Shown piece by piece: positions 7,073 through 32,970 of a stretch of DNA of 33,290 nucleotides; position 1 is the stretch's first letter; each line of letters starts with the position of its first letter. Made by a program: the position numbers and the translations under genes. The DNA is from a virus, in the IMG/VR virus record IMGVR_UViG_3300045988_070243, one strand, 5' to 3'. Under the pieces are notes generated by a model. That model was not told the DNA's origin and ran no database searches. It saw only the letters and a list, made by a program, of their open reading frames with translations.

Positions 7073-7076
7073 AATT

Positions 7077-9512
7077 ATGGATTTACGAAAAATGGTTTTT
7101 AAAATTGCTACAGCAAGCAGCGCAAAATCTACTTCATGGAAAAACCGCTCTTACTCATGGGACGAGTTGACCGAGAAGCTGGCAAGGGCAAAGGTTACGG
7201 ATGAGACGTACCGGGAGTTTATAAGCGCGAGCAAAGCCGAGCAGGGTAATATTAAAGACGTAGGCGCATTCATGGGCGGCGAGTTATTAGGCAGCCGTAG
7301 AAACAAAAACAATGTCGGGGAACGCTCTATTTTGGCGCTCGATATTGACTACGGCGAAAAGAACTTCCCCGAGGCATTCTACTCGGTTATTAATTGCGCA
7401 TGTATCATTCACGGGACGCACAAGCATAACCCGAAGGCAAATACACTTCGATACCGTGTTATCATTCCGTTGTCCGAACCAGTGGACGGGGAACAATACG
7501 AGGCTATTGCCCGAAAGGTTGCGGAGTTAACGGGTATCGACTTGTATGACAGAACGACGTTTCAACCCGAGCGCTGCATGTTTTTCCCGTCGGTTTCCCG
7601 GGATGTAGACTATGAGTTTACAGATTATTCAGCGTTTAACGAAAACCCTTTGGACGTGCAAAAGTATCTGGGCATGTACGACGATTGGAGAGATACTACC
7701 GAATGGGCATACCACAAGGACGAGAAGGGCGAAGCCCGGACGCTTGCTAAAGAACAGCAAGACCCCACACTAAAGGAGGGCATTGTAGGAGACTTTTGCC
7801 GGGCATACACGATTAGCGAGGTTATCGCGGAATACCTATCGGACGTTTACGAGCCTACCGAGCAGGAGGATAGATGGACGTATACGGGAGGGTCAACTTC
7901 GGGCGGCATGATTACCTTCAATGATATGTTTGCCTATTCATTCCATAACAACGACCCGATACAAGGCAACCACGTGTTTAACGCCTACGACCTTGTGCGT
8001 GTACACAAGTTCGGTAAGCTGGATAAGGGCACGGATAGGAAGAACTCCACCGAGGCTATGAACGAACTGGTAAACAAGGACGCGAAGGTAGCCGCGGCAC
8101 GTGCCCGAATGTTGGCGGTTAAGGCTGGCGAAATAATGGACGATTTCGACGATGTAATAGAAGTAGAGGAAGCGACAGACGCCGACGTGGCGACAACGTA
8201 TGAGGACGCTATGGCGAAGTTGGAAACCGATAAGCGCGGCGCTTACCTACCATCCGCGAAGAATTTGGGCCTAATCATGAAGTATGACCCGAATTTAAAG
8301 GGGCTTATCGCTCGCGACCTATTTAAAGAACGCCGGGTTGTTACTCGTGTCCCCCTATGGCGCGCAAAGGATAGTTCTTTGGACTTCCAGGATGTGGACT
8401 ACTCGGGAGTACGTAAACACATCGAAGACGTTTACGGCATATCGAATAGCGCAAAGATTGACGATGCTATAGCACTATCCGCGGAAATGAATTCATTCCA
8501 CCCCGTGCAGGAATACCTAACCAAATTGAAATGGGACGGTATCGAAAGAGTTGATAGGGCTTTAATTCACATCATGGGAGCGGAAGATAACATATACACC
8601 CGAGAGGCATTCCGTATCATGATGGTGGGCGCGGTTAAGCGTATATTCCAAAAGGGCTGCAAGTTCGACAGCATGTTAGTGTTACAGTCCGAGCAGGGCG
8701 CAGGAAAAAGCACATTCATCCGAAAGCTGGGTAAACACTGGTTCTCTGATAGCCTTTCAAGCATGGACGGTAAGGGCGCGTTTGAACAATTGCAGGGTAA
8801 CTGGATATTGGAGGTTGCCGAGTTGTCAGCAATGAGACGTTCAGAAGTTGAGGGCGTTAAAAATTTCATCTCCAAAACAGAGGACAGCTACAGACCAGCA
8901 TACGGGCGTGTCACTAAGAACTTTCCCAGGCAGTGTATCTTTATAGGTACGACGAACAGGGACGAATTTCTAAAGGACGATACGGGTGGCAGGCGCTTTT
9001 TGCCCGTGAAGGTCAAGGCAAACGCTAATACGCACCTTATCTTTGAGAAGAGTTTCGACGATTACGTAGACCAGCTATGGGCTGAAGCCGTGCAGATGTA
9101 TTTCTGCAAAGTAAGTACATTGCTATCTCGTGAAGCCGAGGAAATCGCCGAGAAAGGACGGGAAGAGCATTTCGAGGCAGACCCCCGTACCGCATCAGTA
9201 GAGGCGTATTTGAATATGCGCGTGCCTACAGACTGGAGACGAATGTTTGTGAACGAAAGGCGCATGTACTTTAGAGAGTACGACGCATCAAAGATAGACC
9301 CGGAAGATTTTACACTGGAAAAGATGGACTTCGTATCTATTATGCAAATAGCTACAGATGTGTTCGAGATGGAAGTAGGGCGCGTAACAACTAAGGAGAG
9401 CCGCGAGATAGCCGCTATCATGTCTAAGGTACAAGGGTGGCAACGCGCAGCGAATGGCAAAACCGTCGCAGGTATCGGACGCGTACGAGGGTTTGAGCGT
9501 ATTGTTAATTAG
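7077..9512 (+). CDS. Primase-polymerase / VirE (P4-D5 type) helicase fusion
   Basis: N-terminal prim-pol-like acidic motif ILALDIDYG plus HGTHKH. C-terminal P-loop LVLQSEQGAGKSTFIRKLG with Walker B-like ILEVAEL. Size and position match VirE-family replicative primase-helicases in DUF2800/DUF2815 modules. Confidence 0.8.
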   Translation: MDLRKMVFKIATASSAKSTSWKNRSYSWDELTEKLARAKVTDETYREFISASKAEQGNIKDVGAFMGGELLGSRRNKNNVGERSILALDIDYGEKNFPEAFYSVINCACIIHGTHKHNPKANTLRYRVIIPLSEPVDGEQYEAIARKVAELTGIDLYDRTTFQPERCMFFPSVSRDVDYEFTDYSAFNENPLDVQKYLGMYDDWRDTTEWAYHKDEKGEARTLAKEQQDPTLKEGIVGDFCRAYTISEVIAEYLSDVYEPTEQEDRWTYTGGSTSGGMITFNDMFAYSFHNNDPIQGNHVFNAYDLVRVHKFGKLDKGTDRKNSTEAMNELVNKDAKVAAARARMLAVKAGEIMDDFDDVIEVEEATDADVATTYEDAMAKLETDKRGAYLPSAKNLGLIMKYDPNLKGLIARDLFKERRVVTRVPLWRAKDSSLDFQDVDYSGVRKHIEDVYGISNSAKIDDAIALSAEMNSFHPVQEYLTKLKWDGIERVDRALIHIMGAEDNIYTREAFRIMMVGAVKRIFQKGCKFDSMLVLQSEQGAGKSTFIRKLGKHWFSDSLSSMDGKGAFEQLQGNWILEVAELSAMRRSEVEGVKNFISKTEDSYRPAYGRVTKNFPRQCIFIGTTNRDEFLKDDTGGRRFLPVKVKANANTHLIFEKSFDDYVDQLWAEAVQMYFCKVSTLLSREAEEIAEKGREEHFEADPRTASVEAYLNMRVPTDWRRMFVNERRMYFREYDASKIDPEDFTLEKMDFVSIMQIATDVFEMEVGRVTTKESREIAAIMSKVQGWQRAANGKTVAGIGRVRGFERIVN

Positions 9513-9597
9513 TGATAACAGAGAGGGGGTGTAAAAGCCCCCAAATGTTAACCAACTGTTAACAGAATAACTAAATGAAATTTATTTCTTAAATGGC

Positions 9598-9673: not shown

Positions 9674-9675
9674 AA

Positions 9676-10092
9676 ATGATTATGAAAAAGTTAGTAGTAT
9701 TAGCAGTGTTAATTCTTACAAGTGTATCAATGTTTTCACAGATTACAAGTCAAGGTAAGCCCTATGTATTAAAGTCCTTCCGCATGGGCGTTTGCAAATT
9801 GGTTGATACCAATGGGGAAATAACCATCGAGGCGATAACGCGCGAGACCGAAAGGTATATTATGAAAGTCTATTTAGGTACACCCGAGGAAGCCGCCGTA
9901 ACGCTTGCAAGCCTTGCAGAATACAAGCCCGGTAAGGGCGAGACGGTCAACCTAAACAACCCGAGCAACAACGAAGCGTATTTCCAAAAGCTTACTGGCT
10001 CCTGGATAATCACGGAGAAGTTAACGGAGGTTTTCAGTATCGCCCTGAGCCGTGGGGAGCTTAGGAAAATGGTCGAAGCATTGGAAAATTAA
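9676..10092 (+). CDS. Secreted/exported hypothetical protein (N-terminal signal peptide)
   Basis: MIMKKLVVLAVLILTSVSMFSQ has a basic n-region, a hydrophobic core and a small-residue cleavage region. There is no lipobox Cys. Confidence 0.65.
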   Translation: MIMKKLVVLAVLILTSVSMFSQITSQGKPYVLKSFRMGVCKLVDTNGEITIEAITRETERYIMKVYLGTPEEAAVTLASLAEYKPGKGETVNLNNPSNNEAYFQKLTGSWIITEKLTEVFSIALSRGELRKMVEALEN

Positions 10093-10131
10093 AGAAGTGT
10101 TTTTGTATATACAATTTTAAAAAGAAAAATT

Positions 10132-10332
10132 ATGAAAAGTGGAAATTTTATTGAACTAGCGTTCGTAGTTAAGGGTGAATTGCAAGTAGAGTTTATTAAC
10201 GTTGAACACGTATCGCGCATTATGTACGTAGATGGCAAACCGTTTATCGGTATGCTGGGGCAGACCTACACGCGCCAACTTACAGAAACGAGCATGCAGG
10301 AGCTAATGAACGTTATTAACCTGGAGGACTAA
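10132..10332 (+). CDS. Hypothetical small acidic protein (66 aa)
   Basis: ORF preceded by ACAATTTTAAAAAG leader motif 8 nt upstream of the ATG. Confidence 0.55.
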   Translation: MKSGNFIELAFVVKGELQVEFINVEHVSRIMYVDGKPFIGMLGQTYTRQLTETSMQELMNVINLED

Positions 10333-10339
10333 AAAAGCA

Positions 10340-10498
10340 ATGGTACATATATTAAAAGTAAGAATAATTATAGATAACGAGCCGCCAAGAACGGTGAACC
10401 CTACGGAACAAGTATTCGCTGCCGTGGAGGCCGCAAGAGAGTTTTTTAAATCAGAGTATAAAACAGAAAAAGTGATAATGTATTATGAACAACGTTAG
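10340..10498 (+). CDS. Hypothetical small protein (52 aa, below the ORF-track cutoff)
   Basis: ATG 10340 to TAG 10496..10498 (MVHILKVRIIIDNEPPRTVNPTEQVFAAVEAAREFFKSEYKTEKVIMYYEQR) fills an otherwise empty gap and overlaps the next start by 14 nt. Confidence 0.4.
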   Translation: MVHILKVRIIIDNEPPRTVNPTEQVFAAVEAAREFFKSEYKTEKVIMYYEQR

Positions 10499-11234
10499 AG
10501 ATTACAATATCGGCAAGTCCGATTATGCTAAACATAAGATACAACCGTGGGACATTTGGAAAGAGTATAACCTTAACCCCTGGGACGCGGATATAGTGAA
10601 GCGCGTATTGCGTACCAAAGAGGGCGAGGATAGAAAACTGGACTATGAAAAGATTATCCACATTTGCAAATATCGCATTGCGGAGCTATCTAAGGAAGTT
10701 TCAAAGGAAACCAAGGTAGTTGCACCAGCCGAGGCAGAAAAGCCCGTAGAGGACGAGGAAAGCGATGATACAACGGTGTTCTGCTTGGACGAGACAAAGA
10801 AGCCAGCAACGTTCTATATTGAGGGAACGAAGTGGAACGGTAAGTATGTCGGTTACTCGGTGTTCATGACTGGTAACACCCCCTATATGTATTTGGGTGT
10901 CGACGCAGAGGGATGCCACTTGTACGTAGACCTTTCCAAGTCCGAACAATGGGTTTACACCCCGGAAAGGCACCTGCCGCCAAAAACGTTCAAACTAAAG
11001 TATACCAACCTTTTTGGCAATCACAGAAGCTCGCTAAAGATAGGGTTCACAGGTATGTACTACGAGAAGCACGACTATATAATAGTAGGGAAGGGCGTAC
11101 TACTCCGTTACTTTGGGATGAGAGGAAACAAGTTTGTCTACCGTAATATGTCGGCAAAGCGTGCAGATGGAACGTACCGGGAGGTCTTATGCGATTATAA
11201 GTTAGAAAACAAAGGAATTCAATTCGCGCTATGA
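10485..11234 (+). CDS. DUF3310-like N-terminal domain fused to an unknown ~170-aa C-terminal region
   Basis: N-terminus YNIGKSDYAKHKIQPWDIWKEYNLNPWDADIVKRVLRTKEG resembles the DUF3310 pattern (I-x-P-x-D..W......N.iKY..R). The remainder is unassigned. Confidence 0.5.
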   Translation: MNNVRDYNIGKSDYAKHKIQPWDIWKEYNLNPWDADIVKRVLRTKEGEDRKLDYEKIIHICKYRIAELSKEVSKETKVVAPAEAEKPVEDEESDDTTVFCLDETKKPATFYIEGTKWNGKYVGYSVFMTGNTPYMYLGVDAEGCHLYVDLSKSEQWVYTPERHLPPKTFKLKYTNLFGNHRSSLKIGFTGMYYEKHDYIIVGKGVLLRYFGMRGNKFVYRNMSAKRADGTYREVLCDYKLENKGIQFAL

Positions 11235-11416
11235 TAAGCAGGCAAGAATACGCGTACGGTATCGGAGATGAAATAGTACATAACGGAGAGGTTTTAAAGT
11301 ATAGGGGCTATTATAACGGGCACATCTATACAACTACAGTAGACCACGAATCGGGGGAATTTGCCGAGACAGTGGTATTTGAAAACAAATTGAGAAATGA
11401 AGGAAATAATAAGTGA
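11231..11416 (+). CDS. Hypothetical protein (61 aa)
   Basis: ATGA overlap with the upstream stop. ORF fills the interval up to the VRR-NUC gene. Confidence 0.5.
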   Translation: MISRQEYAYGIGDEIVHNGEVLKYRGYYNGHIYTTTVDHESGEFAETVVFENKLRNEGNNK

Positions 11417-11735
11417 AAAAGATTTAGAGCGTACATTCTCCGAGAAGCTTAACCGAACAAAAAAAGTGTGGGTAATAAAACTATTATCCACCTTTATAAA
11501 AGGTTTGCCGGATAGAATGATACTTTGCCAGGGCGGGTATGTAGGCTTCGCCGAGATAAAGACCACGGGTAAGAAACCAACCAAGATACAACTACTGATA
11601 CACAGCAAGTTGGAGGCTTTAGGCTTCAAAGTATTTATTATCGACGACTTGGAAAGCAGGGACGCAGCAATAAGTTTCTTCTTAAGAAATGTTAAGGAAA
11701 TAAACAGCGTACCGGGAAAAGGGTTATCCTTGTAG
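11397..11735 (+). CDS. VRR-NUC domain nuclease (PD-(D/E)XK)
   Basis: GLPDRMILCQGGYVGFAEIKTTGKKPTKIQ gives the D...E-x-K...Q arrangement of VRR-NUC. Small size and position next to the SNF2 helicase are typical of this replication module. Confidence 0.7.
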   Translation: MKEIISEKDLERTFSEKLNRTKKVWVIKLLSTFIKGLPDRMILCQGGYVGFAEIKTTGKKPTKIQLLIHSKLEALGFKVFIIDDLESRDAAISFFLRNVKEINSVPGKGLSL

Positions 11736-11758
11736 CATCAAATTAAAAAACAGAAATC

Positions 11759-12001
11759 GTGAAAAAGAGAAGTTTAAAAGAAGAAATCGAATACCGTTTA
11801 GGTATGTACTTTGGTATTAAGTCGGGCGCGCTGTATGTCCGTGATGATAAGTTCGGTAACACCGAGGAAATTCTAAAGCAGCTCCAGCAGGATATTACCC
11901 GTGATGTTAATTTCCTCTCGCGTAAAACACTGGGGTACGTATCGGATGAGCAGGATTTCAAAAGCATTTGTGTATTCTATAAAACAAAATTAATGGAGTA
12001 A
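11759..12001 (+). CDS. Hypothetical protein (80 aa, GTG start)
   Basis: GTG lies 9 nt after the CAAATTAAAAAACAG leader motif. Ends at TAATAA. Confidence 0.5.
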   Translation: MKKRSLKEEIEYRLGMYFGIKSGALYVRDDKFGNTEEILKQLQQDITRDVNFLSRKTLGYVSDEQDFKSICVFYKTKLME

Positions 12002-12008
12002 TAAAGCT

Positions 12009-12185
12009 ATGGTAAACTATGTCGATTTAAAGTTAAAGTGTATCGCAGGACACACCGAAATAGTAATCAACGGGCAGCGCATCAAGTGCACGGCCGATTA
12101 CGACAGAGTATTAGGACACGTAACGCCTGCAGCTCTCCGTGAGTTCAGCACCCAGTTATCAATGATAAAATCAATGTTATGTTAG
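12009..12185 (+). CDS. Hypothetical small protein (58 aa, below the ORF-track cutoff)
   Basis: ATG 12009 to TAG 12183..12185 (MVNYVDLKLKCIAGHTEIVINGQRIKCTADYDRVLGHVTPAALREFSTQLSMIKSMLC) fills the gap and overlaps the SNF2 start by 7 nt. Confidence 0.45.
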   Translation: MVNYVDLKLKCIAGHTEIVINGQRIKCTADYDRVLGHVTPAALREFSTQLSMIKSMLC

Positions 12186-13567
12186 AAAGAAAGCAATTAC
12201 ATGATTATCAAAAGAGAGCTGTAGCTCATATCATAGACCATGAGTTTTGCGCGTTGTTCCTTGATATGGGCTTGGGGAAAACAGTAACAACCCTAACCGC
12301 CATCAAAGACCTTTTGGACAATTGCATAATATCTAATTGCCTGGTAATTGCCCCGAAGAAGGTAACGCAGGTTACATGGAGCGATGAGATTAAAGCATGG
12401 GCACACCTTAAGGACTTGACGATTTCCGTTATCGACGGTACAGTTAAACAACGCCGGGAAGCCTACGAGAAGAAAGCGGACATATACGCAATTAGCCGTG
12501 ATAACATTGTTTGGCTCGTAATGGAGTACGGGGGTATAAAACTACCCTATGATATGATTGTTATCGACGAGCTTAGCAGTTTTAAGAACCACGACTCAAA
12601 GCGTTTTAAAGCCCTTAGAAAGGTGCGGAAGTTCATACCCCGGGTAGTAGGGTTGACGGGTACGCCATCGCCAAACGGACTGATAGACCTATTCGCTCAA
12701 ATGTATTTGATAGACCAAGGGCAAAGGCTCGGTAAATCAATCACAGCGTACAGGGATAGGTTTTTCAGACCCGATAAACGGAACGGTGATATAGTGTACA
12801 GTTATGCGCTGAAAAGCCCACAGGAGGAAACAGAGCGGCAAATAAGCGACCTTATCAGTGACATAACCATATCAATGACAGCAGAGGACTATTTGAAGAT
12901 GCCCGACCGCATTAACATATACGACCGCGTGGAGCTGCCCCCTAAAGTGCTGGCACAATACAAGGAGTTTGAGAAGGAACAAGTATTGGGTCTTATTAAC
13001 TCGGACGAGCCGATAAGCGCGGCAAGTGCAGCAGCGTTGTCCAATAAGCTACAGCAATTTGCAAACGGCGCGATATATGATGCCGACCGAAAGGTTATCG
13101 AGTTGCACGACGAGAAGTTAGAGAAACTCGAGGAGCTGGTAGAGGCCGCGAACGGTTCGCCCGTATTGGTTGCCTACTCATACAAGCACGACCTCGACCG
13201 CATAATGAAGAAGCTAAAGGCTTATAAGCCCGTCAAGCTGGAGAAGCCCGAGCAGATAGCCGAGTGGAATGCCGGAAAGATTAAAGTGCTTGTAACGCAC
13301 CCGGCGAGCGCAGGACACGGGCTTAATCTACAAAAAGGTGGGCATACGCTTATATGGTTTGGCAATACATGGAGCTTGGAACTATACATGCAGTTCAACT
13401 CCCGGTTGTACCGCCAGGGGCAAACGTACCCCGTAACCGTTCATCACATCTTAACCACGGGAACGGTAGACGAGAAGATAATAAAAGCCCTGGATGGCAA
13501 GAAACAGACGCAAGACGGGCTTATGCAGAGTATTAAAGAACTTATGGAATTTTACAGTAAGAAATGA
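12179..13567 (+). CDS. SNF2/RAD54-family helicase (superfamily 2 ATPase)
   Basis: Motif I LDMGLGKT, motif II VIDELSSFKN, motif III GLTGTPSPNG, motif V ASAGHGLNLQ, motif VI NSRLYRQGQ. Confidence 0.9.
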   Translation: MLERKQLHDYQKRAVAHIIDHEFCALFLDMGLGKTVTTLTAIKDLLDNCIISNCLVIAPKKVTQVTWSDEIKAWAHLKDLTISVIDGTVKQRREAYEKKADIYAISRDNIVWLVMEYGGIKLPYDMIVIDELSSFKNHDSKRFKALRKVRKFIPRVVGLTGTPSPNGLIDLFAQMYLIDQGQRLGKSITAYRDRFFRPDKRNGDIVYSYALKSPQEETERQISDLISDITISMTAEDYLKMPDRINIYDRVELPPKVLAQYKEFEKEQVLGLINSDEPISAASAAALSNKLQQFANGAIYDADRKVIELHDEKLEKLEELVEAANGSPVLVAYSYKHDLDRIMKKLKAYKPVKLEKPEQIAEWNAGKIKVLVTHPASAGHGLNLQKGGHTLIWFGNTWSLELYMQFNSRLYRQGQTYPVTVHHILTTGTVDEKIIKALDGKKQTQDGLMQSIKELMEFYSKK

Positions 13568-13719
13568 AAAAGTTAATAGCAGTTATCGCAGTCCTACTCT
13601 TGCTGGTAGGCTGCACCGTAGTACAGAACGTGGCGGACAGCATACAGCGTAATTTCAAGCTACAGCAATTAGAGTACGGGCTATCGCTGAAAGATAGTTT
13701 AATGCTTAAATGGTGTTAA
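13564..13719 (+). CDS. Small lipoprotein (51 aa, below the ORF-track cutoff)
   Basis: MKKLIAVIAVLLLLVGC has a signal sequence plus lipobox L-V-G-C. ATGA overlap with the SNF2 stop. Ends at TAA 13717..13719 inside the GTTAAC of promoter cassette 5. Confidence 0.55.
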   Translation: MKKLIAVIAVLLLLVGCTVVQNVADSIQRNFKLQQLEYGLSLKDSLMLKWC

Positions 13720-13773
13720 CGAAAGAACCAACGTAACGGGAAAGCGTTACATTTGTATCAACGATTTAAAAAC
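13715..13773 (+). promoter_or_regulatory. Early promoter cassette copy 5: GTTAAC - GAACCAAC - TACATTTG (13748..13755) - CGATTTAAAAAC
   Basis: Block-for-block similar to copies 1 and 2. Lies 27 nt upstream of ATG 13782. Confidence 0.55.
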
Positions 13774-13781
13774 AGAAGATT

Positions 13782-14204
13782 ATGATTAGAAACAAAGATT
13801 TTGCGATGCTGTACGCAGGGCGTGGGGTATTCAGCAAGAACGGTGAGTTTGCAGGTGTGGTAGTCGGTTGGAACGACATGCACGGTGTGATAATGGGGGT
13901 TGACCACACGGACGGATGGCAGAACTGGGGCGCCAACGATATAGGCGTGTCCGAGGATGAGTTTCTGTCGTACGAATACCGCAACGCCGGGATGCTGGAG
14001 GAGCCGACCGGGATGCCGGTAGAGGAAGCCCCGAAGCATAAGACGATAGGCGAGCTTATCGAGGAGCACGAAGGCGTGCAAGGTATCCAATTCTCTACGG
14101 ACGAGCACGGCAATGTACAGGCCGCCTATATCCGGGGCAAGCACGGAGGTATGAAGCTCATGAGCATGGGAGACGGTTTGGAGAATGTATCATCAAAAAT
14201 TTAA
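13782..14204 (+). CDS. Hypothetical protein (140 aa)
   Basis: ORF directly downstream of promoter cassette 5. No domain recognised. Confidence 0.65.
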   Translation: MIRNKDFAMLYAGRGVFSKNGEFAGVVVGWNDMHGVIMGVDHTDGWQNWGANDIGVSEDEFLSYEYRNAGMLEEPTGMPVEEAPKHKTIGELIEEHEGVQGIQFSTDEHGNVQAAYIRGKHGGMKLMSMGDGLENVSSKI

Positions 14205-14209
14205 AAGGT

Positions 14210-14323
14210 ATGGAAGCATTAATGTGTTTATTTGGAATAGCAATCGGAGCAGGTTTGGTAACTGGCTTGTGGCTCGTAGCTAAATTCGTAGCCCGTAACA
14301 TCGATGGGGAGTACGACGAGTAA
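14210..14323 (+). CDS. Small single-pass membrane peptide (37 aa)
   Basis: ATG 14210 is preceded by AAAATTTAAAAGGT. MEALMCLFGIAIGAGLVTGLWLVAKFVARNIDGEYDE has one hydrophobic helix followed by a charged tail. Confidence 0.4.
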   Translation: MEALMCLFGIAIGAGLVTGLWLVAKFVARNIDGEYDE

Positions 14324-14642
14324 TGGAGTGTTTAACGAAAACAAGAATAAGAAAATGACTAAAGAACCAAAGCTTCCCCATAAGCTTAAATGGGGCGATA
14401 GGACGGCCGCAAGGGTCGACGAAGTGGAATACCTTATCGGTATTAGGGTAGTGGGCTACACGTGCATAGAAGACGTGATTATAGCAGAGGTGCACGAAAG
14501 TGTAGCAGACGAGGTGGGCGCGTGGAGCATGCCCGAAGACTTAAAGAACGTAAGCAATGGCGACGTGTTTATGAAGAAGCCGAGAGCCGGGGCATACTAC
14601 AAATATATAAAGATTAAAAGCATCGTGCATGAAGAAAGTTAG
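14304..14642 (+). CDS. Hypothetical protein (112 aa; alternative start ATG 14357)
   Basis: Open frame ending at TAG 14640..14642. The first ATG overlaps the TM peptide ORF by 20 nt. The internal ATG 14357 (MTKEPK) follows an A-rich leader. Confidence 0.55.
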   Translation: MGSTTSNGVFNENKNKKMTKEPKLPHKLKWGDRTAARVDEVEYLIGIRVVGYTCIEDVIIAEVHESVADEVGAWSMPEDLKNVSNGDVFMKKPRAGAYYKYIKIKSIVHEES

Positions 14643-15024
14643 TTTTATGGATTTGGCGGTATGCCTCAATTGCCATGTCTTCATTATATGGGAGTTCATA
14701 CGAAGGTACGGGTATACCGCCGGGGTAACGAAAGACAAGTACGGGCGCGGTTATGTAGAAGCCCAGCTTTGCAACGGGTGGGTTGATAAGCTGGCGAAGT
14801 ATGTAGCCGCCCAGGATTTCACCTATAAGCAACCAATCAATAAAAGGCAGTATCTTATCAGAGACGAGGCACGTCTCGCAGAGGAGAAAAGAAACGAGCA
14901 AGACATATCGAGAACCTACGGAATTGACCCGGACGGAAGGATAAAAAGGGTATCAACGTTCAAGAATGGGGCGGTTCAAACGTGGTATTGGTATAGGGAT
15001 TCACTCGGGTGGAAATTGACATAA
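14629..15024 (+). CDS. Hypothetical protein (131 aa), last gene of the early block
   Basis: ORF overlaps the upstream stop by 14 nt and is followed by a terminator. No domain recognised. Confidence 0.6.
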   Translation: MKKVSFMDLAVCLNCHVFIIWEFIRRYGYTAGVTKDKYGRGYVEAQLCNGWVDKLAKYVAAQDFTYKQPINKRQYLIRDEARLAEEKRNEQDISRTYGIDPDGRIKRVSTFKNGAVQTWYWYRDSLGWKLT

Positions 15025-15105: not shown

Positions 15106-15150
15106 AGCCCAGATCTGATTACAAAATGTCAGATTTGGGCTTTTGTTTAT
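15106..15150 (+). terminator. Rho-independent terminator closing the early block
   Basis: 13-bp stem AGCCCAGATCTGA (15106..15118) / TCAGATTTGGGCT (15129..15141, one G-U pair) followed by TTTGTTTAT. Confidence 0.75.
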
Positions 15151-15189
15151 AATTAGAAAAAGGAGGCTCTAAAATTAACATATTTTATG

Positions 15190-15395
15190 CACAGCTGCAC
15201 AGTAAAAAATCGCTACTGTGCAGGTCTCTGTGCAGTCTAACTCCTTATATTATAATATGTTATATGTAAATACACAGATGCACAGTAAAAAGGGGGTAAA
15301 ACATTATTTTGGAGAAAAGTGTATTTTAGGGGGTATAAAATATACTATATTCTATATTAAAGTTTAGAAAAAAAGGTGCGTGTCTGTGCAGGTGC
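15190..15395 (+). repeat. Noncoding junction element, copy A (related to 32751..32970): five CTGTGCAG/CTGCACAG 8-mers plus an AT-rich core
   Basis: Blocks shared with copy B: 15216..15257, 15260..15271, 15281..15318 (38 nt perfect), 15352..15370 (19 nt perfect), 15374..15391. 8-mers at 15195, 15216, 15228, 15278 (ATGCACAG) and 15384. Confidence 0.9.
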
Positions 15396-15524
15396 CTGCA
15401 ACGTTCAGTGAGATAGGTAGTTACAGTGTACACATACAAAATATTGTAAATATAATTCATTTGTAAACTTTATTTGTAGAAAATGCCTAACTGGCCGTTG
15501 GTTGGTCTGATGCGATTTGTTGCC

Positions 15525-15532
15525 TACCTTTG
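15525..15532 (+). promoter_or_regulatory. -7 box TACCTTTG, candidate late promoter upstream of terS
   Basis: Exact TAnnTTTG, the same octamer as at 4826 and 17270. It would give a ~120-nt leader before ATG 15661. Confidence 0.45.
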
Positions 15533-15660
15533 TGCCATAATTGGAAAGAACCAAAGCAGTTAATTCGAACTACGCGGTGTCGTCCGAATACTACTTGTGC
15601 ATCTCTTTAAGAGACCGCGAGCACACACGCGCGATACCTTAAATACCAAATAACAAAAAT

Positions 15661-16287
15661 ATGGCAGGGAGAGCAAAGAAGGGAGCCGCCCCCGATACGA
15701 AGGCGGCAATTACCAAGGGACAAGCGACGGGCAAAGCCCCGGCCCCTAAAACAGATTTGGAGAAATGCAAGGAGCTTTATGAGGTCGTGCAGACGCGCGG
15801 TTGCAAAGGTGCTACGTTGTCTACCGTAGAGGAGTGCATAGATTACGTAGCCGAGTACATGAACTTTTGCGTGAAGAACCCCTTCATCACGTATGAAGTC
15901 CTAAAGGGTGGGAACGCAGCCGGGCAAAAAGTACCCATAGAAAAGAAACGCGCGCCATCGCTTGGCGGCTTCTGCCTTTTTATCGGGTGGACTCTGCAAG
16001 CGTTCAAGAAGAACGGCGCACGACTTGAAAAGCTGGCGGACGACGGGAACGAAGAAGCGGCCAACTTATTGACCGGGTACGCCCTTATCGCCGAACTCAT
16101 AGCAACCGATATGGACGAAAGCGCGCTTGCCGGTGTGGTTGATGCTAACTACATGGCAAAGCTTAGAGGACTACGAGACCTTAAAGACGTTACGAGCAAT
16201 GGCAAGGAAGCCGGCACAAAGGCTATGCAGGTTAACGTACTCTCCGAGGACGCAGTGAAGAACCTACAAAAGTTAGGGGGAATTTAA
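15661..16287 (+). CDS. terS: Terminase small subunit
   Basis: Basic N-terminus. The segment KRAPSLGGFCLFIGWTLQAFKKN resembles the HTH region conserved in small terminases (P-t-l-eGl-a-flGis..t). First gene of the late block, upstream of terL. Confidence 0.65.
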   Translation: MAGRAKKGAAPDTKAAITKGQATGKAPAPKTDLEKCKELYEVVQTRGCKGATLSTVEECIDYVAEYMNFCVKNPFITYEVLKGGNAAGQKVPIEKKRAPSLGGFCLFIGWTLQAFKKNGARLEKLADDGNEEAANLLTGYALIAELIATDMDESALAGVVDANYMAKLRGLRDLKDVTSNGKEAGTKAMQVNVLSEDAVKNLQKLGGI

Positions 16288-16295
16288 TAATTTAG

Positions 16296-16565
16296 CTAAA
16301 AACAGTTTTTACGGCAAGGACTTATTCGGCGGTAGTAACCGCAACGGGCGATAGTATCGCCTTTCAAATTGAGGTATCGAACATTGGTACGATTGTACTT
16401 GAACGCTCCATTAACGGCAAAAAGTGGGTGGTAGACCGCAAGATAAGCGATATGTTCGTGTTTAGTAATGTAGCCGAGTTTAATGTTGCCGGCACAGTAG
16501 TAGGTCAACAGTTACGCGTATCGTACGACAACTGCACCGAGGTATCATTTGAAACGCTCCAGTAG
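16296..16565 (+). pseudogene. Start-less 90-codon open frame with beta-rich, protein-like sequence, in frame with the downstream LamG-like gene across a single TAG
   Basis: Open from TAG 16293..16295 to TAG 16563..16565. The first canonical in-frame starts are GTG 16428 and ATG 16452. Translation: ...TYSAVVTATGDSIAFQIEVSNIGTIVLERSINGKKWVVDRKISDMFVFSNVAEFNVAGTVVGQQLRVSYDNCTEVSFETLQ*. Confidence 0.45.
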
Positions 16566-16568
16566 CCT

Positions 16569-17234
16569 ATGAGAGGATTTGATATCAAGCAAATACCCAT
16601 GCGGCCGTTCCAAATATCGGGACTGACCGCTAAATGGGGTATCGGCGGTAGTCGCAAGCCCTCTATATGGGATGCCAACTTAATAGGCAGGTGGGATGCA
16701 CGTACATTCCCGGACGGCGAATTAGCCACGATACCCAATACCGCTACAATGGAAGGTAAATCCCCCGACATTACCGTAGAGGGCGCAACGATGAAAAAGG
16801 GTACATTACAGTTCGACGGTGTGGACGATGGGGCACGTACAAGCAGGTTCTTGTTTCCCGAAAGGTTCACCGTCTTTTGGGATATAGATTGGCTGGGTAC
16901 GATAGACACTAGTGCTGGAGTAATTCACGGGACGAACCTCATTATGTACAATCTCAAAGCCACTGAATCCTTGCTCACCTATATTCGGAGTGCTCCAGGA
17001 AAAATACCTAACACCCGCGTAGGAGTATCAACGAACGGCAAGGTGTACGCCAAAGACGGTAGTGTTACTCCGTTTGGCGGCACAGTAGGTACGGGTGCTA
17101 AAGCAGACGAATTATATATTGCACAGAGAAACACAGCGTTTACCCAAATGGGCTTCCGCCAGCTACTAATATTCAACAAGGAGCTTTCACAAGACGAGGT
17201 TAACGACGTGTTACGCGCCATGTTCCCGGCTTAA
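16569..17234 (+). CDS. LamG-like (concanavalin A-like lectin/glucanase fold) domain protein
   Basis: GTLQFDGVDDGARTS...FTVFWDIDW, NGKVYAKDG and the C-terminal LYIAQRNTAFTQMGFRQLLIFNKELSQDEVNDV match the Laminin_G_3 pattern (FDG.dd, ftvsaW, lyvnG, f.G.id.vriynraLs..Ei). Confidence 0.6.
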   Translation: MRGFDIKQIPMRPFQISGLTAKWGIGGSRKPSIWDANLIGRWDARTFPDGELATIPNTATMEGKSPDITVEGATMKKGTLQFDGVDDGARTSRFLFPERFTVFWDIDWLGTIDTSAGVIHGTNLIMYNLKATESLLTYIRSAPGKIPNTRVGVSTNGKVYAKDGSVTPFGGTVGTGAKADELYIAQRNTAFTQMGFRQLLIFNKELSQDEVNDVLRAMFPA

Positions 17235-17269
17235 ACTCTATCAAACATCAATGCCACATCGGTTTTAAC

Positions 17270-17277
17270 TACCTTTG
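17270..17277 (+). promoter_or_regulatory. -7 box TACCTTTG upstream of terL, embedded in an 8-bp inverted repeat (ATGCCACA 17251..17258 / TGTGGCAT 17275..17282)
   Basis: Exact TAnnTTTG 22 nt before ATG 17299. The inverted repeat was read directly from the sequence. Confidence 0.45.
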
Positions 17278-17298
17278 TGGCATTAAACATTTATAAGC

Positions 17299-18444
17299 AT
17301 GAACGTTACATTTACTTTTGAAAAGATACTGGCGGCTTTCGTAGACCCGAAGATACGCGGAGTAGCCTCTAAAGGCGGTACACGTAGCGGCAAGACATGG
17401 GCAACCCTACAGATGTTACACATACTTGCATTGAACAACCCGCAACCGCTCGTTATCTCGTGCGTAGCGGCTACGTTCCCTATGGTGAAACGCGGTATGC
17501 TCCGAGACTTTAAAGCTATGGTGGTAGCCGAGGGCTACTGGGACGAGAACAAGTTTAATAAAACGGAAAGTACATACGAATACCCGAACGGCACGATAAT
17601 AGAGTTCTTCTCGTGTGATAACGCCGGGAAGGTGCACGGCCCTGCACGTGATATTCTGTTCGTCAACGAGGCCCAGGGCATACCCCGGGAAATCTTTAGG
17701 CAGCTTGATATCAGAACAAGGAAGAAAGTTATTATAGACTATAACCCCGTGCGTAAGTTCTGGGGCGAAACGGAGTTCGTAGGTGACAGATACGTTACCG
17801 TACATTCAACGTACAAGGATAACCCGTACTTGACCCCCGAACAAGTGGCAGCCATCGAGAAGAACAAGAACGATGCTAACTGGTGGCGCGTGTACGGTGA
17901 GGGCTTGACGGGCGGCGTAGAGGGTAACGTTTACCCCGAATATGAGGTTATTGACGATATGCCCGAGACGTTTACGGGCAGGTGCCTGGGGCTTGACTTT
18001 GGTTTCGTGAATGACCCTACCGCGATAGTCGATATACGCATGGAGGGCTGGGATTTGTTCGTGGACTTGCTTTGCTATGAACAAGGCTTGCTAAATAGCC
18101 ATATAGCGGACTACTTGAACGCTAATGCACTGAACCGCGTTGTAACGGTGTGTGACAGTGCGGAGCAAAAGAGCATCGTGGAGCTACAGCAGAAGCATAT
18201 CAAAGCGATACCGTGTGTCAAGGGACGCGGCTCTGTGGCGGCTGGTATTGCACAGGTCAAGCAGTTCAAGTTGCACGTAACAAAGCGTTCGGTCAAGCTG
18301 CTTGACGAGTTGGATAACTACAAATGGATTAAGGACGAGGTATCGGACACATACACCAACGAAGCCATAGACGCGTGGAACCACGCACTCGACGCTCTCC
18401 GTTACGGTGTGGACTTCTTGATACGTAAATACAGACCCAAATAA
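17299..18444 (+). CDS. terL: Terminase large subunit (compact PBSX/Terminase_3-like)
   Basis: Walker A SKGGTRSGKTWA, Walker B-like DILFVNEAQ. Nuclease-domain acidic motifs GLDFGFVNDPTAIV, VCDSAEQKSI, HALDALRYG. Confidence 0.85.
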   Translation: MNVTFTFEKILAAFVDPKIRGVASKGGTRSGKTWATLQMLHILALNNPQPLVISCVAATFPMVKRGMLRDFKAMVVAEGYWDENKFNKTESTYEYPNGTIIEFFSCDNAGKVHGPARDILFVNEAQGIPREIFRQLDIRTRKKVIIDYNPVRKFWGETEFVGDRYVTVHSTYKDNPYLTPEQVAAIEKNKNDANWWRVYGEGLTGGVEGNVYPEYEVIDDMPETFTGRCLGLDFGFVNDPTAIVDIRMEGWDLFVDLLCYEQGLLNSHIADYLNANALNRVVTVCDSAEQKSIVELQQKHIKAIPCVKGRGSVAAGIAQVKQFKLHVTKRSVKLLDELDNYKWIKDEVSDTYTNEAIDAWNHALDALRYGVDFLIRKYRPK

Positions 18445-19055
18445 TGAAGAAATTTATATTGAAGTGGATATATCGCATAACAGCGATAAACAACCGAAAG
18501 GTATTACTAAGAGTTGCTAACCTACCGGCAAACGGAACCGTCCGAATAACCAAGGACGAAGAGAAGTTGCTAAAGGATATGATTAAGTACTGCCGACCCT
18601 CGCAAGTCGCTACGCGCAATGGGAAGGCGGTGTACAGACTTCGGGACGTTGAGGGTATAACTCTATGGTCTATGCTTGAAACGCGCCGTGCAGAGGACGC
18701 AAACGAGCGTATCAAGGCTTGGACTGATGACAACTACGAAGCGGAAACGATTCTCGACGCCGCAAAGCTTGATAAGTTCATAGTGTCACAGATGGAAATC
18801 GCGGACGGTCTCGAACAAGTAGTGTTCCGGAATATGAAGCAGACGGGCGAAAGCGCGTTGACGGGCGACGAGAACATTAAACAAGCAAAGAACCTACTCG
18901 GACTTGTGCAGATTACCGCCGAGCTATTCCACTGTAGCTTTGAAGACGCAAAGCAAATCAACTACTCGGACGCTATGCTGGCTATCGCCAAACGTAACGA
19001 CGAGATAGAGAAGGAGAAGCGAGAAATGAAGAAACAACAAATGAAAAACAGATAG
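18444..19055 (+). CDS. Hypothetical protein (203 aa)
   Basis: TAATG overlap with the terL stop suggests translational coupling. No domain recognised. Confidence 0.6.
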   Translation: MKKFILKWIYRITAINNRKVLLRVANLPANGTVRITKDEEKLLKDMIKYCRPSQVATRNGKAVYRLRDVEGITLWSMLETRRAEDANERIKAWTDDNYEAETILDAAKLDKFIVSQMEIADGLEQVVFRNMKQTGESALTGDENIKQAKNLLGLVQITAELFHCSFEDAKQINYSDAMLAIAKRNDEIEKEKREMKKQQMKNR

Positions 19056-19057
19056 TT

Positions 19058-19462
19058 ATGACTTTTGAAACAATAATTAACACAGCGAACGCCCGGGCTA
19101 CGGCCTTGGGCAAAACGCTGATATTCGGAGATACCGCAGTACAGAACGTAGCGGCAAACGAATTGAGTGACGACTTTTTTACGCTTGACGTAACGACTGG
19201 AAGCTATACGGACACGAACGTACCGGGGTCAAGCGCCTACACGGTTGTCATTCGCTGCATGGGTACATCAGCTTATATGCGAGACGATGCGGTAGAGATA
19301 GCAACTTTGATACGCACAGACCTACTGTTGCATGAGATGCTTAAGAGCTTCATATGCGGCTACGAGATTGGCTCGCTACGTATCGCCAAAGTGCAGAACC
19401 AGTACGACACCATCAAATCGGGTTGGGAGGCAACGTTCGACGCATACAAGTATGGGGCGTGA
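19058..19462 (+). CDS. Hypothetical virion-module protein (134 aa)
   Basis: ORF starts 2 nt after the upstream stop. No domain recognised. Confidence 0.6.
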   Translation: MTFETIINTANARATALGKTLIFGDTAVQNVAANELSDDFFTLDVTTGSYTDTNVPGSSAYTVVIRCMGTSAYMRDDAVEIATLIRTDLLLHEMLKSFICGYEIGSLRIAKVQNQYDTIKSGWEATFDAYKYGA

Positions 19463-19472
19463 ACTTAATACC

Positions 19473-19505
19473 GTTTGCTTTCTGATGGTTTACTTCGTAC
19501 TTTTG
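19473..19505 (+). promoter_or_regulatory. Bacteroidota-type promoter: -33 TTTG (19473..19476) and -7 TACTTTTG (19498..19505)
   Basis: Both consensus boxes are present with a 21-nt spacer. Lies 24 nt upstream of ATG 19530. Confidence 0.55.
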
Positions 19506-19529
19506 TACACTGTTTAAAAACAAAAAAGC

Positions 19530-19874
19530 ATGAAAATCATTTGGAACAACTTTATCCCGGTTAAGGGCTTCAAAGCTATTAACCTATTCGGCGTCCTTTT
19601 CGCGCGCTATAACGCGGTTATAAGCGAAACGACGTTAAGACATGAACACATTCACACGATGCAAATGCGCGAAATGCTGTACGTGCCGTTTTACTTGTGG
19701 TATGGCGTTGAGTACGTTATTCGCTTTATCAGCTGGAGCTTCGAGAAGAAGCCGTGCGACCCGAACGACAAGCCATACGACCGTATGAGCTTTGAGAGGG
19801 AAGCCTACGGCAACGAGCACGACGTAGACTACCCAAAGACAAGGAAACATTTTAGCTGGTTTAAGTATATTTAA
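19530..19874 (+). CDS. Small HExxH (zincin-like) protein
   Basis: LRHEHIHTMQMRE contains HExxH, with a downstream FEREAY that could supply a third ligand. Hydrophobic N-terminal half. Confidence 0.5.
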   Translation: MKIIWNNFIPVKGFKAINLFGVLFARYNAVISETTLRHEHIHTMQMREMLYVPFYLWYGVEYVIRFISWSFEKKPCDPNDKPYDRMSFEREAYGNEHDVDYPKTRKHFSWFKYI

Positions 19875-19876
19875 CT

Positions 19877-20317
19877 ATGAACAAGGAAGTTACCCAATTA
19901 GTTAGGCAGATACGCGACGAGATAGTAGCTAACTACTATCGCATGGGGCTTAACGCTTCGGGTCGCTTCGATAGGGAAACCGAAGTGGTAGAGTATGCAG
20001 GCGGCGTGAAGATTGAAAGCCCGGCATACATATATCAGATGGAAGGCGGACGGACGGCTGGCAGCTTTCCGCCCGTTTCTGCCATTAGGCAATGGATTAA
20101 AGACAAGAACGCGAACGCCGGAACGGACATACCCGAAGAAGCGGCATACGCAATCGCATACGTTATCAAGCGCGACGGCATCCGCGTACCCAACGAGCAC
20201 AACGAGGGCGGCGTAGCAAGCTCTATACTAACCCCCGAGATGGTGCAACGTATCACAGTAGAGGTGTCCCGGATAGTAAGGGCAGAGATATTAACCATTT
20301 TAACTAAAAAGCAATGA
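19877..20317 (+). CDS. Hypothetical virion-module protein (146 aa)
   Basis: Tightly packed ORF starting 2 nt after the upstream stop, with an ATGA overlap with the next gene. Confidence 0.6.
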   Translation: MNKEVTQLVRQIRDEIVANYYRMGLNASGRFDRETEVVEYAGGVKIESPAYIYQMEGGRTAGSFPPVSAIRQWIKDKNANAGTDIPEEAAYAIAYVIKRDGIRVPNEHNEGGVASSILTPEMVQRITVEVSRIVRAEILTILTKKQ

Positions 20318-21333
20318 TTATAAGAAACCTATTAACTAACGATACGGCAACGGCGGCTGGTTACATAACCATATGCGGAATTGGCGCAGGTATTTATCGC
20401 CCTATACGACTGGAGCAGGTAGGCGAGGTTACCAGTATAACCCTTATCTATTCACGTAATGGATATACAAAGGCAACCGCCGCAGTTACCCCATACGAGG
20501 GCGCGGTTTTGGATATGTCGATGATGGCAGCCGCTACGCCGAGCATAACAGAGAGCATTAACGCAGGTCTCGGTTTTACCGACTACGTAGACCATGTATC
20601 AATACAATACATGGAGGGTACGTTGAAGGGTATTAATATTAACGTTATACATGCCCCTTTAGCAGATGGGCGGTTCGCCACGTGGGCAAGCACGCGCAAC
20701 CTATCGGACTACGGTAACGGGCTGTTTAACCGATTTGACTTTAATTGCGTTCATTTCCTTAACAGCCCGTTAACGGGTAAACCGTTTAACTTTGCTTTGA
20801 GATACGGACAGCTTACAGCGAACTCGGACGGTAGACTAAAGTTCAGAAACAACGGTACGGGTACATCTACTCCATGGGATAATGCGTATGTAGTGCAGGG
20901 GGCAAACCCCCAAACATACCAGTTTAGAACTGCCGACGACGCGTCTATCTGGGGCTGGGCACGTTTTGAACGTAAATACCCGTATTGCTCTGACCCTAAT
21001 AAACGGGTAACGCTTCGATGGCTTAACAGCAAGGGGGCATATGATACGATGTATTTTGACCAATACCGTATTGTGCCCACTTACTTGGTTAACTTCTCCG
21101 GCGGCAACCGTGTGTTGTCCTACGACGTTACGATAAGCGTAGTAGTAACGGACGATAACCAAAACGCGCTGTACTGGCTTTCACGTTCGGGCGATGTCGC
21201 CGGGGTATTCCCTTTGGCTACCAATCAGTGGGCACGCGTTACGATACAGAACCCGAACGCGCTGAACATACAAGGCGGTGCGACGGGACGGGTAGCGGCG
21301 TTTAAATGCAAGTTTGAAATTATAGAACCTTAA
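20314..21333 (+). CDS. Hypothetical structural protein (339 aa)
   Basis: Long ORF in the virion module, translationally coupled (ATGA) to the upstream gene. No motif recognised. Confidence 0.65.
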   Translation: MIIRNLLTNDTATAAGYITICGIGAGIYRPIRLEQVGEVTSITLIYSRNGYTKATAAVTPYEGAVLDMSMMAAATPSITESINAGLGFTDYVDHVSIQYMEGTLKGININVIHAPLADGRFATWASTRNLSDYGNGLFNRFDFNCVHFLNSPLTGKPFNFALRYGQLTANSDGRLKFRNNGTGTSTPWDNAYVVQGANPQTYQFRTADDASIWGWARFERKYPYCSDPNKRVTLRWLNSKGAYDTMYFDQYRIVPTYLVNFSGGNRVLSYDVTISVVVTDDNQNALYWLSRSGDVAGVFPLATNQWARVTIQNPNALNIQGGATGRVAAFKCKFEIIEP

Positions 21334-21337
21334 CAAT

Positions 21338-22942: not shown

Positions 22943-22953
22943 TAATTTGGATT

Positions 22954-32702: not shown

Positions 32703-32735
32703 AATGGAGGGCTGTTAACAGTTCTCCATTTTTTG
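32703..32735 (+). terminator. Rho-independent terminator closing the late block
   Basis: AATGGAGGGCTGTT / AACAGTTCTCCATT inverted repeat (two G-U pairs, centred on GTTAAC) followed by TTTTT. Confidence 0.7.
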
Positions 32736-32750
32736 TTAACATTCTTTAGA

Positions 32751-32970
32751 CACAGTCTGCACAGTAGAAAAGTAGGTCTGTGCAGGTCTCTTGTGCAGTC
32801 TAACTCCTTATATTATAATACATTATATGTAAATGCACAGTAAACACAGTAAAAAGGGGGTAAAACATTATTTTGGAGAAAATACCATTTACCACTATAG
32901 AACGAGCTGTAAAAACCGCTATATCCTATATTAAAGTTTAGAAATTTAGGTGCGTTTCTGTGCTGTGCAG
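32751..32970 (+). repeat. Noncoding junction element, copy B (related to 15190..15395)
   Basis: Blocks shared with copy A: 32778..32820, 32823..32834, 32845..32882 (38 nt perfect), 32926..32944 (19 nt perfect), 32948..32970. 8-mers at 32757, 32778, 32791 (TTGTGCAG), 32833 (ATGCACAG) and 32963. Confidence 0.9.

Follow-up and report, generated by a model that had tools for sequence, protein, structure and literature searches.

Genome setting and position of the elements

The IMG/VR virus record IMGVR_UViG_3300045988_070243 (33,290 nt; this whole stretch of DNA was analysed and is referred to as the window) contained two noncoding elements in the same orientation, element A (15188–15391) and element B (32750–32970). 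Both carried short repeats around an AT-rich tract, and together they were interpreted as, probably, two copies of an iteron-type replication origin. The elements were 17.56 kb apart on a circle of 33.19 kb, and each sat past a terminator where the early (replication) and late (structural/lysis) modules adjoin. Each began approximately 45 nt 3' of a terminator-type hairpin that closed the preceding module, and ended 130–270 nt ahead of the promoter-like sequences of the next. Every A-orthologue had retained the terminator before A, and a single variant, GGCC/GGCC, was compensatory; the terminator-like hairpin before B was kept in all B-orthologues, and was missed by the terminator scanner because its loop was longer than 8 nt.

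The window corresponded to a whole phage genome. An exact direct repeat of 99 bp was present at both ends (1–99 = 33192–33290), and therefore the contig is circular with a true genome length of 33,191 bp; this terminal duplication is the sole assembly artefact here. The phage is a Bacteroides uniformis siphophage, represented by a complete circular assembly, and its plausible genes all lie on the + strand. The early module (genes 731 to 15024) encoded a Cas4-like exonuclease, a Gp2.5-like single-strand binding protein, an exonuclease, a family-A DNA polymerase, a primase-helicase of 811 residues, a VRR-NUC nuclease and an SNF2-type helicase, while the late module (genes 15661 to 32696) encoded packaging, head, tail and lysis functions. 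The cumulative GC skew was positive and monotonic over the whole genome, and was uninformative on the origin because the genes are all on one strand.

The nearest relatives were lytic B. uniformis siphophages, namely C2_18_80S2P, EMB1, EMB2, the BU241P/BU183P/BU730P phages, BU1-1 to BU3-1 and BX788P2; the family name 'Bacteroiduroviridae' has been put forward in a paper on these phages. EMB1 and EMB2 are reported to be circularly permuted and EMB2 to be a headful (pac) packager, the packaging mode being given without the position of pac (PMC9584325). Neither element was marked in the annotation of 10 GenBank records of relatives, and the papers on these phages that were examined made no mention of origins, promoters or repeats at the elements; a literature search likewise produced no relevant result. 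For this family of gut Bacteroides siphophages, therefore, no replication origin was annotated in those 10 records or described in the literature examined.

Organization of elements A and B

The order of parts was the same in both copies (Table 1): a doublet of repeats ending in CAG (sites 0 and 1), a doublet in the reverse complement (2 and 3), the AT-rich tract, a second CAG-ending doublet (4a and 4b), some 95–110 nt of conserved non-repeat sequence and, finally, one or two sites starting with CTG (5). It follows from this order that the repeats flanking the AT-rich tract face each other across it. The tract was 37 nt long and 81–84% A+T, with at least two repeats per side in opposite orientations, and in A and B alike, site 2 started exactly 21 nt from the start of site 1. 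The blocks that a previous, sequence-only reading had listed as common to the two elements were all recovered: 15216–15257 was identical to 32778–32820 but for one extra T, TTATATGTAAAT was common to 15260–15271 and 32823–32834, a perfect 38-mer to 15281–15318 and 32845–32882, and the 19-mer CTATATTAAAGTTTAGAAA to 15352–15370 and 32926–32944, while both copies ended in AGGTGCGT.TCTGTGC. That reading had also counted five copies of one 8-mer in each element. The array was present, but the count was imprecise; exact 8-mers numbered four in A (15195, - strand; 15216, 15228 and 15384, + strand) and three in B (32757, - strand; 32778 and 32963, + strand), and 6–7 sites per copy were reached only with cores of 5–7 nt (CACAG, GCACAG, TGCACAG).

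The 8-mer CTGTGCAG/CTGCACAG occurred eight times in the window, against an expectation of 0.41, and at least eight occurrences were found in none of 100 shuffles; seven of the eight were inside A and B. Similarly, 10 of the 13 genomic copies of the 7-mer CTGTGCA/TGCACAG fell within A and B, whose combined share of the genome is 1.4%. This enrichment is far above chance.

Table 1. Positions of the features of elements A and B, the flanking hairpins and the proposed initiator gene in the window
Feature	Position	Strand	Content or evidence
Primase-helicase, 811 aa, proposed initiator reading the iterons	7077..9512	+	VapE-like domain, SaPI1 Rep1 homology
Primase-helicase codons 786-803 (QGWQRAANGKTVAGIGRV), predicted beta2-wing of winged-helix-like C-terminal domain	9432..9485	+	Positions 789, 793, 794, 796
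Intrinsic terminator closing early module, 5' of A	15106..15147	+	14-bp stem AGCCCAGATCTGA...TCAGATTTGGGCT, then TTTTGTTT
A iteron doublet 0/1, TGCACAG-C-TGCACAG, CAG-end orientation	15188..15202	+	Motif shifts in concert with other sites between phages
A iteron doublet 2/3, CTGTGCAG-GTCT-CTGTGCAG, opposite orientation	15216..15235	+	Site 2 and site 1 form an inverted repeat
A AT-rich central tract, 84% A+T, candidate DNA-unwinding element	15236..15272	.	Composition
A iteron doublet 4a/4b, TACACAG-A-TGCACAG	15271..15285	+	Orientation opposite to 2/3 across AT tract
A conserved non-iteron blocks, 38-mer CACAGTAAAAAGGGGGTAAAACATTATTTTGGAGAAAA and CTATATTAAAGTTTAGAAA	15281..15370	+	Identical in A and B
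A distal iterons 5a/5b, GTGCGTGT-CTGTGCAG	15376..15391	+	Class changes with other sites, e.g. GTGTCCATCTGGGCG in class III
Hairpin and T-run closing late (lysis) module, 5' of B	32703..32735	+	AATGGAG-N14-CTCCATT then TTTTT, by eye
B left iteron cluster	32750..32798	+	ACACAG, CTGCACAG (32757), CTGTGCAG (32778), TTGTGCAG (32791)
B AT-rich central tract, 81% A+T	32799..32835	.	Composition
B iteron doublet 4a/4b, TGCACAG-TA-AACACAG	32834..32849	+	Motif positions
B conserved non-iteron blocks, 38-mer, B-specific insert ACCACTATAG..., 19-mer	32845..32944	+	Comparison with A
B distal iterons, CTGTGC-TGTGCAG	32958..32970	+	Motif positions

A small conserved open reading frame (ORF) was considered for the non-repeat region and rejected. 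The frame in A runs from an ATG at 15278 to a TAG at 15367 (29 codons), whereas B has a 34-codon ORF that ends in another frame, and several orthologues had no such ATG (e.g., 020131_A). The same region contained a hairpin in A only (15319–15345, GTGTATTTTA-GGGGGTA-TAAAATATAC, 10 bp including one G.T); at this place B had no hairpin, having a 10-nt insert and other sequence instead.

Conservation and motif classes among close relatives

Orthologous elements were compared among nine independently sequenced GenBank phages, of which eight are annotated as complete and one is partial, and in approximately 45 further contigs obtained from IMG/VR with flank-specific patterns, giving 75 distinct element copies in all. 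A degenerate anchor (GTAAAACATTATYYYTGGA) had been tried in IMG/VR and produced two chance matches only, in unrelated sequence (L020 and L021). Related phages carried the element at the same junctions, and both copies were found in every close relative for which both junctions had been sampled. Among the nine GenBank genomes, A-orthologues were 82–91% identical and B-orthologues 80–94%, while A and B were 72–82% identical to each other. Since the two copies occurred with their own flanks in nine independent phages, the duplication is not an artefact of chimeric assembly, the alternative previously raised against it; and since all nine possessed both copies, with these identities, the duplication is older than the spread of the group.

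The proposal that conserved blocks among diverged spacers reflect selection was supported by these comparisons, though gene conversion between the copies occurs too. In the AT-rich tract, TATTATAATA..TTATATGTA was almost invariant among the 75 copies, and so was TAAAACATTAT in the non-iteron blocks, where most columns were identical. An auxiliary function is probable for the non-iteron blocks (the 38-mer and AAAGTTTAG), with an auxiliary origin element, a host-factor site or a promoter as candidate roles. Gene conversion was apparent from the left half of B, which was of the A type in several genomes. In L013–L018 and L003, B had the A-type spacer TAAAAAATCGCTA between sites 1 and 2 in place of the B type (TAGAAAAGTAGGT, window 32757–32790).

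The sequence of the repeat varied between phages, and within one element the variants shifted at all sites together. Five classes were distinguished: class I (TGCACAG/CTGTGCA), which accounted for most contigs; class II (GACACAG/CTGTGTC); class IIb (TTACACAG/CTGTGTAA); class III (TGACCAG/CTGGTCA, CTGGGCG); and class IV (TGTACAG/CTGTACA), which was scattered. Both copies were of the same class in most genomes. Such concerted change of all sites could mean either that the sites pair with one another or that they are read by one protein, which itself has changed.

Co-variation of the repeats with the primase-helicase

The association between motif class and protein sequence was scanned using 35 proteins of the window, with an orthologue taken from every contig, each residue treated as a predictor of motif class and shuffled labels as the null. 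The sample comprised 50 contigs (36 of class I, seven of IIb, three of II and four of III). The six top positions were all in the primase-helicase (478, 794, 756, 793, 796 and 789; z = 10.4–14.4), four of them within eight residues near the C-terminus (789–796), while the top position of any other protein reached z = 7.9. Genes between the primase-helicase and copy A, although physically nearer to A, followed class less well, and therefore simple linkage is not the whole explanation. A wholesale protein swap was considered for the class III phage BU183P1 and rejected; no protein was outlying in overall identity, the signal being present only per residue.

Comparison of the segment QGWQRAANGKTVAGIGRVRG, the predicted wing, across contigs showed the same pattern at the level of single repeats. 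The 26 contigs with ANGKT wings contained 202 GCACAG and 39 ACACAG cores but no GACCAG, whereas four contigs with AGR(R/K)A wings, in two sequence backgrounds, contained 31 GACCAG, 12 GCCCAG and four GGCCAG but no GCACAG. The seven contigs with W(K/R)R.A(D/E)A wings had 48 ACACAG (30 of these as TTACACAG) and two GCACAG. Four of the five contigs bearing GTACAG had AKAK, AGAK or AGQK wings, and the fifth (005525) had an AEAK wing of the IIb type. By correlation, therefore, the repeat sequence appears to match the variant of the initiator that accompanies it.

Several properties of the primase-helicase were consistent with such a role. Residues 481–698 matched the VapE-like domain (Pfam, E = 2e-79), residues 393–731 aligned to the complex of SaPI1 Rep1 with DNA (PDB 7PDS, E = 2e-81), and both halves of the protein matched PHROG families annotated as helicase, primase or helicase-primase. 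A Pfam scan of residues 701–811 gave no match, and a search of protein databases with the C-terminal 161 residues returned 13 matches only, mostly short fragments, so that the structure model of this region was shallow and of low confidence. In that AlphaFold2 model (mean predicted local distance difference test score, pLDDT, 58), the order of elements was strand, helix, helix, strand, long loop and strand, which would fit a winged helix, with residues 789–796 in the second strand and the loop. The predicted wing at codons 786–803, which contains four of the six top positions of the scan, is a candidate specificity determinant, although the winged-helix fold of the C-terminal domain is unproven. 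It had been remarked that no obvious DNA-binding regulator was encoded near the elements; this calls for correction, in that a likely binding protein does exist, but its gene ends 5.7 kb upstream of A. The gap immediately 3' of that gene (9513–9675) contained no repeats.

Repeats in distant relatives

In relatives with 59–72% identity over residues 501–811 of the primase-helicase, two long noncoding gaps were present at the same two places, approximately 9–10 kb upstream and 5.4–7.6 kb downstream of the end of the primase-helicase gene. These gaps held different repeats, paired with different C-terminal tails. Ten loci approximately 70% identical over residues 501–811, with the tail ...PGWERSRQRVKSYGQQRG..., had the repeat CTGTGCCAC; L108 had CTGGAACAC, L120 and L121 had TGTAACA, and L122 and L140 had TGTCACA. 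The non-iteron blocks were partly recognisable in the relatives of about 70% identity, as GGTATAACACTTTATTTTGG and AAATAAAGTTATAGGAAAA. The equivalent gap in BS162P3 contained an 11-nt inverted repeat (GTACTGGGCAA...TTGCCCAGTAC) across an AT-rich stretch. In L141, which was 42% identical over the same residues, doublets of TGTAAAC in both orientations occupied 9190–9490, beginning 4 nt past the stop codon of the primase-helicase gene and surrounding an AT-rich stretch and a GC hairpin; this is the location of the origin in the pathogenicity islands of Staphylococcus aureus (SaPIs).

Comparison with known replication origins

The Rep proteins of SaPIs are self-loading initiator-helicases with a C-terminal winged helix that recognises penta- or hexanucleotide iterons, and the SaPI origin comprises 6–12 such iterons, divided equally between the two sides of an AT-rich centre, with no fewer than two on either side oppositely directed (PMC9371898). 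The present system resembled these in its homologous initiator, which is a fusion of primase and helicase as in PriRep5, and in its short repeats (5–8 nt, approximately 6–12 per origin) that flank an AT-rich centre in opposite directions. Furthermore, specificity differs between elements in both systems, through the C-terminal winged helix in SaPIs (PMC9371898) and, here, as a set of natural specificity variants. It differed in that the SaPI origin is single and immediately 3' of rep, whereas the phage had two copies, 5.7 kb and approximately 9 kb away, at the module junctions of a lytic phage, each with about 100 nt of additional conserved non-repeat sequence. The host is also Bacteroides and not a Gram-positive coccus, and the C-terminal domains had no detectable sequence similarity.

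The α protein of the satellite phage P4 is a single polypeptide with a primase first, an SF3 helicase next and an origin-binding winged helix at the C-terminus (PMC2777425). The primase-helicase combines the same three parts in the same order, its winged helix being only predicted; however, the primase domain of P4 is DnaG-like, whereas for the N-terminal half here all matches were to phage families with a primase or helicase annotation. P4 α reportedly binds the octamer TGTTCACC, in both orientations, at ori and crr, both of which are said to be needed in cis. The two P4 sites are 4.5 kb apart and unlike in structure, whereas A and B are alike over approximately 210 nt and half a genome apart.

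A precedent for two similar copies was provided by the Bacillus phage SPP1, which is also a headful-packaging siphophage. Its two origins, approximately 13 kb apart, are similarly organised (repeats plus an AT-rich unwinding element) and are both bound by one initiator; one of them lies between genes of the late region, in a segment with transcription signals on both sides, and is proposed to stall forks and so lead to concatemer synthesis (PMC6316719). However, SPP1 replication is initiated by the unrelated gp38, which depends on a separate loader and a helicase of the DnaB type; the SPP1 repeats are direct, and oriL is inside gene 38. To judge from P4 and SPP1, adjacency to the initiator gene is not required of iteron origins in general.

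Interpretation of the elements

The observation is real and functional. Of the three roles offered by the sequence-only reading, an iteron origin with an unwinding element was favoured, because the layout matches iteron origins already described and the motif co-varies with the C-terminal region of the primase-helicase; a structured RNA was not supported and an operator was not favoured. Elements A and B are therefore read, with fair confidence on sequence grounds, as two copies of an iteron-type replication origin or, more cautiously, as two initiator-binding arrays. The primase-helicase, a homologue of SaPI Rep, would act as a self-loading initiator-helicase of the SF3/VapE type, and its C-terminal winged-helix-like domain would read the repeats of 7–8 nt (consensus CTGTGCA/TGCACAG). 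Protein assembled on both sides would melt the AT-rich tract, and the melted tract would permit helicase loading and priming of DNA synthesis, so that replication would start at A or B.

Several points weigh against this interpretation. All of the evidence came from sequence analysis. The association between motif and protein is correlative, the sequences are phylogenetically related, and classes II and III comprised 3–4 contigs each from few lineages. The model of the last 161 residues was of low confidence, as stated, and a Foldseek search with it placed chains of 7PDS first and forkhead winged helices next, all with E > 0.4 and not significant. The distance between the primase-helicase gene and the elements is 5.7 kb and about 9 kb, whereas the SaPI origin adjoins its initiator gene. 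One contig, 29708_27, was mixed, with GTACAG (TGTACAG-type) in copy A and GCACAG (TGCACAG-type) in copy B, and therefore either the initiator must tolerate both motifs or the contig is a recent recombinant. Finally, the iteron model leaves unexplained the conservation of roughly half of each element, namely the 38-mer and the other blocks.

The two copies could be two active origins; alternatively, with P4 ori/crr or SPP1 oriL/oriR as models, one would be an origin and the other would serve as an enhancer or fork barrier. A more elaborate version, which is conceivable though rather doubtful, is that A and B are not redundant origins but work as a coupled pair across the circle from each other, where one fires and the other, using the same initiator, is an enhancer or fork barrier that switches synthesis from circle-to-circle to concatemer. 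The non-repeat blocks would then be a second shared module (for example a priming site, a host-factor site or a promoter), and, because both copies are at early/late borders, the pair would tie the programme of transcription and packaging to replication.

The other roles considered are compatible with that of an origin and are not mutually exclusive, but as explanations of the elements the operator, pac and RNA readings were not favoured. An operator array, in which the repeats are bound by a phage regulator, possibly the primase-helicase or else a small protein not recognised as such, that times early and late transcription with no part in replication, was considered unlikely. It would account for the position of both copies, exactly at the early/late and late/early junctions and 3' of terminators. 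Each copy lies approximately 130–270 nt 5' of promoter-like sequences of the next module, which for A are represented by an invariant -7 box (TACCTTTG, 15525–15532) and for B by a promoter-like repeat at 33063–33112, and near-matches to the Bacteroides -7 motif (TTATTTTG) were read by eye in the conserved blocks. By the same inspection, no canonical Bacteroides -33/-7 pair was seen inside the element, the canonical -7 box being the one downstream. Pfam and PHROG scans identified no helix-turn-helix or other regulatory or DNA-binding family among the small early proteins, and the only protein that tracked the motif was the homologue of a replication initiator. Oppositely oriented repeats around an AT-rich tract are, moreover, a hallmark of the origins of this initiator family, and the array of L141 follows the primase-helicase gene rather than occupying a module junction.

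A pac region was judged very unlikely. The terminase small subunit would bind the repeat clusters, and a cut in or near the AT-rich tract would start headful packaging; this accords with the position of A, which precedes the terminase small-subunit gene (15661–16287; PHROG) by 266 nt, and with the circular permutation and headful packaging of EMB2, a headful packager being able to tolerate a second pac site. The P1 pac site consists of clusters of hexamers flanking a central region, a layout that the repeat clusters resemble, and the SPP1 pac region has pacL and pacR boxes. However, the small subunit was 93–96% identical across all motif classes, and none of its positions separated them (23 sequences from class I, four from II, four from IIb, two from III and one from IV). 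B is also far from any packaging gene, and the L141 array adjoins the primase-helicase gene instead.

Lastly, the complementary 8-mers might pair in a transcript, or in single-stranded DNA, with alternative hairpins serving as a riboregulator or as processing or antitermination signals. The inverted repeat of sites 1 and 2 was paired in 87% of cells, with changes on both sides at seven of ten pairs and a covariation score of 0.167, against 0.082 in shuffles. Mismatches in this stem on the + strand were G.T and not A.C (9 versus 0), and in most copies the + strand folded somewhat better than the - strand. These signals did not extend further. On each strand, the RNAalifold consensus retained just the short hairpin of the proximal repeat (about -12 kcal/mol); long-range pairing of sites 4b and 5b (53%) was equal to a control slid by +1; the TA/TA extension beyond the repeat was paired in only about 55–60% of copies; and no match was produced by Rfam (E ≤ 1) or by tRNA/tmRNA scans of the whole window. 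An extended fold was also rejected, since strong single-sequence folds (-47 to -59 kcal/mol) were unlike between the copies and the alignment kept the proximal hairpin alone. Thus, the search for covariation in homologues, which the sequence-only reading had advised, produced nothing beyond the proximal inverted repeat. With the G.T excess amounting to only 3–4 independent events, symmetric change of half-sites being equally expected of two sites read by one protein, and the motif following protein residues in a way that an RNA does not predict, this explanation is highly improbable.

Considered as a replication origin, the system combines known and new features. The family of the initiator and the core layout are already known, as in SaPIs; the duplication, the distance from the initiator gene, the placement at module junctions, the extra conserved blocks and the natural series of matched motif and wing variants are new. 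At least four motif variants in close relatives pair with few residues in one loop, and diverged relatives add more; this series makes the reading of DNA by the winged-helix wing of an SF3 initiator directly testable. The twin layout, half a genome apart, similarly makes it testable whether a second array is a second origin or a switch of replication mode. A known origin and initiator would aid the reading of replication-based abundance signals in gut viromes, and the engineering of these phages or of Bacteroides vectors built from them.

Promoter-like sequences and other repeats

A family of promoter-like repeats of 60–90 nt (GTTAAC...AACCAAC...TTATATTTGCAT...CAATTTAAAAAC) preceded early genes, at 338–443, 2557–2662, 2934–3019, 9581–9688, 10091–10152, 11679–11764 and 13698–13802, and was absent from the late region. 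The Bacteroides -7 box (TAnnTTTG) was present in these repeats, with a phage-specific upstream part in place of the usual -33 TTTG. A separate 50-nt repeat, ATACAACCTAT.G.TATTTGC...AATGTCAAAAGGAAA.AA, occurred at 9609–9658 and 33063–33112 with 86% identity, just 3' of the primase-helicase gene and about 90 nt past element B, respectively; it looks like a promoter and leader common to two early transcription units.

Downstream of A, at 15441–15535, GTGTAAATATAATTCATTTGTAAACTTTATTTG and GCGATTTGTTGCCTACCTTTGTGCC were invariant or nearly so in 10 genomes. The latter contains the -7 box mentioned above, a perfect match to the Bacteroides consensus, and on this basis is likely to be the promoter of the late operon. 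Between approximately 15600 and 15640, 5' of the small terminase gene, there was a conserved leader (ATCTCTTTAAGAGACCGCGAGCACACACGCGCG) with the palindrome TCTCTT-TA-AGAGA, which might regulate the late operon as its 5' leader; a GACCGCGC...CAC motif also preceded the small terminase gene in the distant relatives L108 and BS162P3.

Two further sets of tandem repeats were observed. One set, at 208–287 in the interval that separates element B from the first clear early gene, consisted of two tandem 40-nt repeats, 85% identical (...GGTACGCCATAACGGTAGATTTGAGGC), which overlapped small ORFs at 102–272 and 241–366. Within the ORF at 731–1384, which encodes an early protein with no assigned function, four to five tandem 24-nt repeats (1009–1128) coded for (A)KPKPENV.

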